From: an uncultured Planctomycetia bacterium
GTDB taxonomy: Bacteria; Omnitrophota; Gorgyraeia; JABMRG01
DNA length: 64,000 nt
Assembly: GCA_964493115.1 (NCBI GenBank)
Contig: CAZBNF010000001.1
Span: 1,786-65,785, forward strand
Direction: 5' to 3'
Shown one piece after another: positions 35,169-38,100 of the stretch. The position numbers and the translations under genes were made by a program. Each line of letters opens with the position of its first letter. Within the stretch, counting starts at the first letter, position 1. The notes under the pieces were generated by a model. It saw only the letters and a list, made by a program, of their open reading frames with translations. It was not told where the DNA came from and searched no databases.

Positions 35169-38100
35169 CTATATATCTAAGTTGGTAACTTCCCTCGCGT
35201 GCTTTTCGATAAACGCACGCCGCGGTTCAACCGCATCACCCATAAGCACTGTAAACATCTCATCCGCCTTAACCACGTCTTCTAACCTCACATTCAAAAG
35301 TGTGCGCCGCGCGGGGTCCATTGTTGTCTCCCACAGCTGCCCTGGGTTCATTTCGCCCAGGCCCTTGTAACGTTGCACAACCATGCCATGCCTGGCGCGC
35401 TCCTTGATCTTGTCTATCAGCTCTTTCAGGCTATACACAAGCGTGGTTTCGCCGTCTGCCCGTAATTTCAAGATTGGCTGCCGCTGGTCCTCTGATACCT
35501 TTTTACGTTTCGGGGCCTTTTCTACGTCTTCCGATTTAGGGTCATATGCTTCCACCAGGGGGATACCCAGCTTGTCAAGGCTCGCGATCGCCTGAGCGAT
35601 GGTTTCTGCTTCAAAAAATTCGACCACATCGATATCTTTGGATGTTGGCGCTTCTTTGTCTGTTTCATTGTGCAGCTCTAACACCTTGCCGCTCTTTTTT
35701 TCATATTCCTTAACGATTTTCGCTAATTCCGCATCTGAATAAGCAAAATGGGCTATACCCTCCACTTTTACCATAAAAACGGGCACTTTTTTGGTTTTTG
35801 GCTGCACCAAAGACAGATATTTTATGAACTTTACTCCCCTGCGCTCTATTGCCTTGCCCATCTGCGCTATCTGTATTAATGTCGCACACAAGTCACGAGT
35901 CTGCTTGCTCGACAACTCTTGCGCCGGCCGGGTTTTGGATAACACCAGATCATCTGTGCCCATATCGAGCAGTAGGGCGTCCATTTCCGCTTCTGTTTGT
36001 ATGTATTCTTCGCGTTTTCCGCGCTTGACTTTATAAAGTGGGGGTTGAGCAATGTAAATCCTGCCATCTTCAAGCAGTTTGGGCATTTGCCGGTAAAAAA
36101 AAGTGAGCAGCAGGGTGCGTATATGAGAGCCATCTACATCCGCGTCTGCCATCAAAATGATCTTATGATACCTGAGGCGTTCTGCATTGAACTCCTCGCC
36201 AATACCGCAGCCAAGGGCCGTGATAATAGTTTTTATTTCTTCATTCGATAAAATCTTGTCCAGCCGCGCCTTCTCTACGTTTAGAATCTTACCTTTCAGG
36301 GGTAATATGGCCTGGAAGCGCCTATCGCGTCCTTGCCGGGCACTATTATGGACAAAAACTCCGCCAGATAAGGCGAAATTATGGGTGTATGGAACCTCAA
36401 TATCATAAACATCTATTTTTTGTTTCAGTAATCTCACGCTTCTTATTTTATGGTTAAATCCTTTCACCGCTTCAAGCAACTTAGTTTTATCGCCATCAAA
36501 AAATCGCTCTGTTATTGTATCCAGCTTGAGCAAGTTCTTGTTCTGCTTTGGCAGAAGCCTTCTATGCCTATCGTATGAGTTGGTACTACCCTCTTTTTCG
36601 TATACTTCTCTTAAAAATCTCATGCTGTGGCCCAAATAGGTCTTGCTATAAGCCAGCTTTCTTTTAGCCCTGAATCCATCTGTCCATTGTTCCTTTGTCT
36701 TTTCTCTTCTCCACGACAACAGGCTTTCGTCCTGCCATTGTTTCTTGGCCTCCATGGATAGGAATTCTCTCCATTCAGGGTGGTTTTGGGCATATGCCCT
36801 TACCTTCCCTGACTGCTTTTGTCTGTTTTCTGCAAAAGCCCAATAGCGTTTTTGGGCATCGCTGAGTCTCCTTAACAGGCGTTTTCTATATTCAGGGCTA
36901 TTGTTGTAAAAAATTAGATATTTCTGTTTCATAAACTCTTTATAATCTTCGTCCTGCCATTGCTGCTTAGCCCTTTCACTCAATACCCCTGAAAGCTGTT
37001 TCATGGTGGCGGCCATTTTCTTTCTGTAAGAGGGTGTCCTTTTAATTTTGTTACATTTCTCTATGACGTCTTGCCTGTGAAGAGTTCTTTTTGCGTGTTT
37101 GCTATGAACCCCCAGGTGTTCCTTTCCGGAAACCCTGATAATATTGTCGGGGTTGTTGTTTAGTTTATTAAAATCAACGTGGTGCCTGTAGCTGCCGTTG
37201 CTTTCTTTGTATGCCTCGGTTTCCAGGTTATATATATCTGCCAGCTTATGGGTGAGGCCCCACTTGTGTGTTTTGGGGTTAAGCACCATTTCATATCCTT
37301 TGATCTTGATGCCTCCCTTTATTTCGGAAAGCTTTCTCCCCAATGGCATAAGGCTCATGCCGGGCACTAGAGCTCTTGCTTCGATAAAAGAAGCGTCTCT
37401 TAACATAAACTTATGGTCGGGGGTGCAAATTATTTTTTCGTTATTGTCTAGCGTAATTTCTGCCACGGCAGTGTTCTTTTTAGTACGTCTTGGATATAAT
37501 ATCTTCTCTATACCAACATTTCCGTCCTTCTTAACAGTGTAACAATAGTTGGTTTTTCCTTTATGCCATTCCTTCATAAGCTGCTTGAAAGAAAGGTTTC
37601 TGCCGTCTAACAAGGCTACTTTTGTTTCTCCTGAAAAGCAACCCCCGGCGCTGTCTCCTTCTACAAGATACACCTCGCACATCGAGGCATCTGTCTCTGA
37701 ACAGTCGGATAGTTTGCCCGGGAGCCCGGACATTTCCAGGGCACCTTTCCGCCTGGTGAGTTCTCTCGCCTTGCGCGCTGCCTCGCGTGCCCTAGCCGCT
37801 ACTGTAGCTTTTTCAATGATCTTGTTCGCCACTGTTGGGTTTTCTTCAAAAAAACTACTTAATGAGTCATTAACCATAGAGGCAACCACGCCTTCTACAT
37901 CGGCATTGCCGAGCTTGGTCTTGGTCTGTCCTTCAAACTGGGGGCTTGGCATCTTTACGCTGATAATCGCTGTAAGCCCTTCGCGAATATCGTCCCCGGA
38001 AAGCACGGCCTCTGTGTTTTTAAGCAGCTTTTTATTTTTGCAATACTGGTTTGCCGCTCGCGTTAACGCGGACTTAAACCCGCTTAAGTGAGTGCCGCCT

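Follow-up and report, generated by a model that had tools for sequence, protein, structure and literature searches.

A GyrB Toprim-site intein with a predicted HNH-type endonuclease in an uncultured Omnitrophota-like bacterium

The gyrase subunits GyrB and GyrA are among the common intein hosts of bacteria; GyrB inteins have been recorded in Cyanobacteria, Chloroflexi, Actinobacteria and Proteobacteria, and functional roles have been proposed for inteins that cluster in replication proteins (PMC4760082). One gyrB intein allele is reported to be shared by Halobacteria, many cyanobacteria and other bacteria as well as further Euryarchaeota, with transfers over long distances (Soucy et al. 2014, PMC4071816). 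In E. coli, splicing of the Ssp GyrB intein has been documented both for the intein itself and after deletion of its endonuclease domain, and the mini form is a standard tool (PMC3620165). An intein endonuclease of the HNH type was reported in 1997 (Dalgaard et al., by its title as cited in PMC8966425). Here we describe a gyrB intein in a 64,000-nucleotide (nt) stretch of contig CAZBNF010000001.1 (the window, to which all positions refer) from an Omnitrophota-like uncultured bacterium. We examined its anatomy and homology, its precise presence/absence polymorphism and the decoupling of its similarity from that of its hosts. The element is very probably a bifunctional class-1 intein of a widespread family at the GyrB Toprim site, and carries an HNH-type homing endonuclease.

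Anatomy of the gyrB intein

The gyrB precursor is encoded on the minus strand by a single open reading frame (ORF; 35169..39032) of 1287 amino acids (aa) with a GTG start. The intein makes up precursor residues 465-896 (36345..37640, minus), running from CFSGETKV to VFVHN with Cys1 at its head and His431-Asn432 at its end, followed by Ser+1, and it splits the Toprim motif at EGDSAGG^S (the caret marks the junction). An earlier interpretation of the DNA letters by themselves, hereafter the sequence-only reading, had placed a 432-aa insert at these positions, and its boundaries, VFVHN end and +1 Ser were all exact on the ORF translation. The N-extein (aa 1-464; 37641..39032, minus) ends in VEGDSAGG of the Toprim motif, and the C-extein (aa 897-1287 plus stop; 35169..36344, minus) supplies the remainder of Toprim and the GyrB C-terminus. 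When joined, the exteins give an 855-aa GyrB that matched NCBIfam TIGR01059 gyrB at 991.7 bits (cut-off 882.4) and was collinear with it across model positions 1-639. The Pfam domains of gyrB were HATPase_c, DNA_gyraseB, Toprim, GyrB_hook and DNA_gyraseB_C, with Toprim resuming after the intein at precursor residues 897-996. The N-extein shared 70-75% identity with Omnitrophota-like GyrB N-exteins.

The identification of the insert as an intein was borne out by significant similarity to Hint blocks. The intein matched Pfam PF14890 Intein_splicing at 62.6 bits (E = 4.9e-17; gathering score 35.8 bits), TIGR01445 for the N-terminal splicing region over aa 1-79 (42.5 bits against a cut-off of 24.5) and TIGR01443 for the C-terminal region over aa 410-432 (23.6 bits against 15.6). 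The class-1 catalytic set was complete, comprising C1, T73-P-D-H76 of block B, H431-N432 and S+1, and was conserved in 34-36 homologues; in the 34-sequence alignment C72, T73, P74 and H76 were nearly invariant and V411-N432 largely so. The N-terminal splicing (Hint) subdomain covers aa 1-105 (37326..37640, minus) with Cys1 in block A and T73-x-x-H76 in block B, and the C-terminal subdomain covers aa 396-432 (36345..36455, minus) with blocks F and G. An AlphaFold2 model built on 34 homologues had a mean predicted local distance difference test (pLDDT) score of 85.8 and placed beta strands at aa 7-104. When this model was compared with the PDB using Foldseek, it retrieved only inteins and Hint domains (31 matches at E <= 1e-3, best 4e-6), among them the Npu/Ssp DnaE, Mtu RecA, Ssp/Npu DnaB and Pho RadA inteins. 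Judged by its sequence and its modelled fold, the gyrB insert is a canonical class-1 intein.

The two splicing subdomains enclose a region with an HNH nuclease domain at aa 112-203 (37032..37307, minus), where phrog_7545, an 'HNH endonuclease' family, matched at E = 8.5e-8; phrog_21964 and phrog_15471 also matched, and further E values were 1.8e-4 and 8.9e-4. The HNH motif spans aa 151-179 (37104..37190), and H153, H154, N162, P164, N166, H175 and H179 were invariant in the 34 aligned homologues. In the AlphaFold2 model the core at aa 153-179 (37104..37184, minus) is predicted to adopt a beta-beta-alpha fold, with two strands (151-154 and 167-170) that lead into a helix (172-183). Pfam HNH_3 matched 14 of the 34 family members at E <= 0.01 (best E 1.1e-5), and a LAGLIDADG signal was absent from the gyrB intein. 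In BFVD, a viral structure library searched with Foldseek, the intein model matched a siphovirus terminase intein at E = 2e-22 and free-standing phage HNH/homing endonucleases at E of about 5e-4. Because of the PHROG HNH families and the HNH_3 matches in 14 of 34 relatives, the embedded nuclease is classified from its sequence as HNH-type and not LAGLIDADG, in agreement with the sequence-only reading. A NUMOD3 match (E = 0.3) lay inside the Hint part and was set aside as noise.

Beyond the HNH core lies an all-helical module rich in Trp, Tyr and Lys (aa 185-393; 36462..37088, minus), in which AlphaFold2 placed helices at 190-393. Many of its Trp, Tyr and Arg positions were invariant in the family, and invariant Lys positions were likewise common. 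Scanned alone, the module matched nothing in Pfam or PHROG, in which no NUMOD, helix-turn-helix or other recognised domain was found, and it had no PDB counterpart. A HMMER scan of 1.84 billion cluster representatives with the module returned only 102 matches at E <= 1e-3. Of ten that were scanned with Pfam, seven carried GyrB or intein domains, and all seven were GyrB inteins; the other three, which were repeat-rich and helical or had no annotation, resemble chance matches. By this measure the module is nearly confined to GyrB inteins. Within the module, aa 213-246 and 287-320 (together 36681..37004, minus) may represent an internal duplication, since hhalign aligned them with a probability of 61% and E = 1e-5. 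A third copy was doubtful, and a repeat array is not claimed for this single pair of segments of moderate similarity.

Empty sites and the GyrB intein family

The intein was absent from close relatives of the window. The spliced window gyrB coding sequence (CDS) is 2568 nt long, the same length as in L084 (JGI 3300025824), L085 and L087 (ENA ERZ27245787), all of which were uninterrupted, and L084 and L087 gyrB were 96% identical to it in nucleotides. Relatives with the empty site were found at two levels, 96% nt (97% aa) and 88% nt (92% aa), and a search with the spliced GyrB retrieved the intein-less 855-aa proteins P0122 and P0123 (97% identity) and P0124 and P0125 (92%). The empty junction in L084 and L087 reads GGC^AGC or GGT^AGC, that of L084 standing in the context ...GTAGAAGGAGACAGCGCCGGGGGC^AGCGCCCGGCAAGGACGTGAT..., and the two junctions of the window read GGT^TGC and AAT^AGT. 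The uninterrupted site in relatives of 96% identity indicates that the window carries a precise insertion of 1296 bp. The orthologues thus lack the insert to the nucleotide at both 97% and 92% aa identity, contrary to what the sequence-only reading had named as its refutation, an insert kept in orthologues as a non-splicing domain. Among the 120 nearest GyrBs, mostly from Omnitrophota, 115 were without an intein as judged by their length. The N-junction of the window was reproduced in three independent ENA assemblies at >=99.9% nt identity, which excludes an assembly artefact, and protein P0121 from ENA assemblies was identical to the window precursor.

We then considered the relatives of the intein itself. 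A protein search returned 579 matches, all of at most 754 aa, a ceiling that would be explained by an apparent length limit on matches of about 1.75 times the query. The best 120 were 40-57% identical to the query, usually at 100% coverage, and those among them that were named or annotated by Pfam were all GyrB fragments. Their sources included Patescibacteria, Omnitrophota, DPANN archaea, Methanosarcinales, Thermoplasmatota, Chloroflexota, Campylobacterales and cyanobacteria, the last represented by Planktothrix, Aetokthonos, Waterburya, Pseudanabaena and Microcoleaceae (E 1e-119 to 1e-92), and genomic relatives were also found in bacteria of the candidate phyla radiation (CPR) and in Proteobacteria. 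All 36 complete inteins that were extracted sat at EG(D/N/E)SAGG^C...HN^S; 29 were 429-435 aa long and seven were shortened to 298-412 aa. In species-representative genomes of bacteria and archaea, at least 547 loci encoded a relative of the window intein. Eighty of these were retrieved, and in all 80 the intein was contiguous with the end of the N-extein and the start of the C-extein, demonstrating the same insertion site. NCBI often annotates the homologues as 'intein-containing DNA gyrase subunit B'. The window intein adds a member to the family of GyrB HNH inteins, which is already known and very widespread.

A natural mini-intein was found in P0158, a 1015-aa protein whose extein is 73% identical to that of the window GyrB. 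It comprises 154 aa (residues about 470-623) at the same EGDSAGG^S site, and it is without the whole HNH and helical region, with boundaries that correspond to window intein aa of about 105 and about 389, the former agreeing with the end of the N-terminal splicing subdomain. Over the C-terminal 43 aa it was 79% identical to the window intein.

The similarity of the inteins did not follow that of their hosts. Over 2628 pairs from 73 intein-bearing genomes, the Spearman correlation between intein identity and N-extein identity was 0.014. Very close hosts retained similar inteins, and in some distant hosts the inteins were more alike than the GyrBs, as in the pair L028/L024 with 83% intein identity against 59% extein identity. 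This decoupling fits horizontal homing.

Proposed homing cycle and alternative explanations

In the mechanism that we propose, the 1287-aa precursor would fold a split Hint domain from intein residues of about 1-105 and 396-432. Cys1 would undergo an N-S acyl shift, the N-extein would pass to Ser+1, and Asn432 would cyclise with the help of His431 to release the intein, after which an O-N shift would restore EGDSAGG-SARQGRD and yield an active GyrB of 855 aa. The junction interrupts the motif with the catalytic Toprim glutamate, and gyrase activity would therefore depend on splicing. We infer that the window precursor splices from its conserved catalytic residues, from gyrB being an essential gene and, by analogy, from the splicing of the homologous Ssp GyrB intein. 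The freed 432-aa protein would bring together an HNH metal site, formed by His154 with Asn162/Asn166 and His175/His179, and the helical module of about 200 aa. Its target would be the intein-less gyrB allele around ...GACAGCGCCGGGGG(C/T)^AG(C/T)GCCCGGCAAGG..., and recombinational repair of the cleaved allele from an intein-bearing copy would insert the 1296 bp. DNA cleavage and homing by the window intein are likewise presumed. Empty, full, partly deleted and mini forms were all observed, as the model of a homing cycle expects.

Several results weigh against this explanation. Pfam HNH_3 scored 12.6-15.4 bits on the window intein, below its gathering score of 24.8 (E = 0.11 when the intein was scanned entire, 0.015 for aa 100-200), so that the profile search which the sequence-only reading had suggested for the HNH domain gave a divided answer, positive on balance, with the PHROG families matching and the Pfam family falling short. 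A PDB sequence search with a profile of the endonuclease region retrieved no solved structure, only a His-tag artefact, and a structure model of the endonuclease alone had no PDB fold match; this model was poorer in the HNH core than the full one, with pLDDT < 50 at its residues 54-69. We know of no demonstration of cleavage by the HNH domain of a GyrB intein. The nearest full-length relative was only about 55-60% identical to the window intein, which indicates that no recent donor is among the sampled sequences, and the flat identities of around 50% could in part reflect saturation, given an intein that evolves fast. No co-conversion tract was detectable next to the junction in comparison with L084: the differences near it, at -106, -1, +2, +17, +45 and +90, were no denser than the 4% background, and the nearest of them (-1, +2 and +17) were all synonymous. 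The low HNH_3 score, the missing co-conversion signature and the lack of a close donor among the sampled sequences would suit an intein that splices and has an inactive endonuclease, a vertically inherited passenger whose distribution reflects an older invasion or precise losses, and which is kept only since any loss that is not precise would ruin a catalytic motif that the cell needs. The decayed forms in the family, namely the mini-intein and the partial deletions, are also in keeping with it. Against this, the seven invariant residues of the HNH core and dozens of Trp, Tyr and Arg positions of the helical module are intact in the window and conserved across phyla, the element has its full length of 432 aa within the family mode of 429-435, and it is missing from relatives only 4% diverged in nucleotides, which points to a recent event. 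We regard the inactive passenger as rather unlikely, though it is the most serious competitor of the homing intein.

Much less probable is a domesticated intein that serves as a conditional, regulatory splicing switch, by which redox state or stress acting on Cys1, for example, would gate gyrase activity after translation. Such a role would explain why gyrA and gyrB both carry inteins, and it could draw on the insertion in the catalytic motif of an essential enzyme, on the recurrence of the double arrangement in four other genomes (L001, L032, L057 and L079) and on the functional roles proposed for inteins of replication proteins (PMC4760082). However, relatives of 96% nt identity manage without either intein, as do for gyrB nearly all of the nearest GyrBs (115/120, by length), the full endonuclease has been retained, which fits selfish mobility better than domestication, and the sequence showed no feature peculiar to regulation. 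A further explanation takes the insert for something that does not splice, be it an accessory domain that GyrB keeps permanently or a chimera made in assembly. It is refuted: all intein catalytic residues are present and the intein models score above their cut-offs, orthologues are without the insert to the nucleotide, the identical junction in three independent assemblies speaks against a chimera, and an accessory domain at this place would part the catalytic EGDSAGG from the remaining Toprim.

Within the homing interpretation, the helical module may be the part through which this intein allele recognises its specific DNA target. We put forward more tentatively, as a possibility that we would not yet favour over its converse, that the module is an uncharacterised DNA-recognition domain restricted to the GyrB intein allele, and that the element is actively homing in uncultured Omnitrophota. 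If this were true, the locus would offer a natural system in which to study the endonuclease of an HNH intein, a kind of enzyme of which we know no biochemical or structural description. With 96% nt identity between them, the occupied and empty alleles fix the homing site at single-nucleotide precision and could support a first biochemical test of such an enzyme, and the mini-intein, together with the intermediate deletion forms, offers ready boundaries to those who would engineer GyrB inteins in split or mini form.

Gyrase locus and comparison with known systems

The gyrA gene (31316..35149, minus) also carries an intein, as the sequence-only reading had stated in holding that both gyrase subunits depend on protein splicing. 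This intein has 466 aa, is of the LAGLIDADG type and lies at 33536..34933 (minus) at SARIVGD^C...SHN^; it matched Pfam LAGLIDADG_3 at E = 3.8e-20 and Intein_splicing at E = 1.3e-16. L084, L085 and L087, with 95-98% GyrA identity, were without it, and the +1 Cys is a native residue there. Both gyrase inteins differ in presence between genomes that are only about 4% diverged. Inteins at the same gyrA site (47-56% identity) were found alongside the gyrB HNH intein in L001, L032, L057 and L079, indicating that the double arrangement is recurrent in the clade and not unique to the window.

Further gyrase inteins were seen in other genomes. As judged from gaps in tblastn collinearity, gyrA insertions lay elsewhere in L003, L021, L034, L042 and L077 (C-extein position about 51) and in L007, L039 and L063 (about 13), so that many genomes with the gyrB HNH intein have insertions at other gyrA positions and several distinct gyrA intein sites exist. 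A second gyrB intein, placed further along Toprim in the downstream direction and close to the DADVDG motif (...HN^TDGSHIRT), was located at L079 6994..8764 and L070 1900..3640 and in proteins P0228, P0235 and P0275. In these three proteins it was of the LAGLIDADG type, and P0275 (1608 aa) carries it together with the HNH intein.

Composition sets the gyrase inteins apart from their hosts, both having about 41% G+C compared with about 49-50% in the exteins. We rejected this as a sign of recent transfer or foreign origin, since the gyrB intein (41.1%) has the G+C content of the window on average (41.2%), and the departure lies with the gyrase exteins, which are richer (49.4%).

The order of genes at the locus, rnpA/rpmH-dnaA-dnaN-dciA-gyrB-gyrA, identifies it as the replication-origin region. 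Between dnaN and gyrB lies a 98-aa ORF (39034..39330, minus) that is a dciA homologue, its identity resting on PF05258 in the gene of equal length in L084 and L085. The dciA stop is 1 nt ahead of the gyrB GTG, which suggests translational coupling. GyrB itself begins with a basic, low-complexity tail of 39 aa rich in Thr, Pro, Ala and Gln (38916..39032, minus), counted from the GTG start, that precedes a conserved stretch of 11 residues, with a GGAG Shine-Dalgarno sequence 6 nt upstream of the GTG. Its length and start were conserved in L084 and L085, yet it diverged faster than the rest, with about 59% identity where the protein as a whole has 92%. The sequence-only reading had described an unusual extension of about 45 aa. 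The tail is real, although shorter than that, and it is typical of the clade, other Omnitrophota-like GyrBs having basic tails of 11-36 aa. In the annotation of this genome, the mature products to be reported are an 855-aa GyrB and an 811-aa GyrA.

GyrB inteins at this site, the HNH nuclease and the spread across domains are already documented, and for this reason the locus carries little weight for basic biology. Only the near-identical empty and occupied alleles of both gyrase genes, and the uncharacterised helical module, are mildly novel angles. More distant likenesses were found among phages. A Hint protein of Bacillus phage SP-15 matched the intein from end to end (Foldseek E = 1.7e-24; tblastn 27% over 100%), and of the phage records it was the only one whose alignment continued across the helical module. 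In tblastn, the Hint N-part and the HNH core were shared, at 27-31% identity, with inteins in phage genes for DNA polymerase, dCTP deaminase and terminase. These phage Hint-HNH inteins differ from the window intein in residing in other host proteins and sites, and their identity to it is only about 25-31%. The window nuclease resembles free-standing phage HNH homing endonucleases of the I-HmuI type in its HH...N...N...H motif and in the beta-beta-alpha core that is predicted for it. Enzymes of that family combine the nuclease core with a DNA-binding region that is separate and extended, and in the window this part would be played by the long helical module. Unlike the free-standing enzymes, the window nuclease sits within a Hint domain.

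The gyrB allele shared by Halobacteria and Bacteria (PMC4071816) offers a parallel in its cross-domain spread, which here extends to Methanosarcinales, DPANN, CPR and Proteobacteria. The acid-rich members P0028 and P0040 look haloarchaeal. The closest known counterparts of the window intein are the GyrB inteins of cyanobacteria, and the link to Synechocystis-type inteins drawn by the sequence-only reading held, as these are full-length homologues at the same site. The HNH intein of the 1997 report is said to be the Synechocystis GyrB intein, and the first HNH intein to be described. When an approximate sequence of the Ssp GyrB mini-intein was aligned with the window intein, it covered both splicing subdomains at E = 3e-44, with 61% identity over the C-terminal 44 aa and 46% over the N-terminal alignment; used as a protein query, it retrieved short GyrB intein fragments and no exact match. 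The cyanobacterial inteins and that of the window occupy the same host protein and the same insertion point, EGDSAGG^C...VHN^S, are of like size and share the Hint-HNH-helical-Hint architecture with conserved HNH residues, the 434-aa intein of Planktothrix P0038, for example, being 46% identical to the window intein at 100% coverage. The window intein differs from them in sequence, with identities of about 45-50%, and in its host, an Omnitrophota-like uncultured bacterium.

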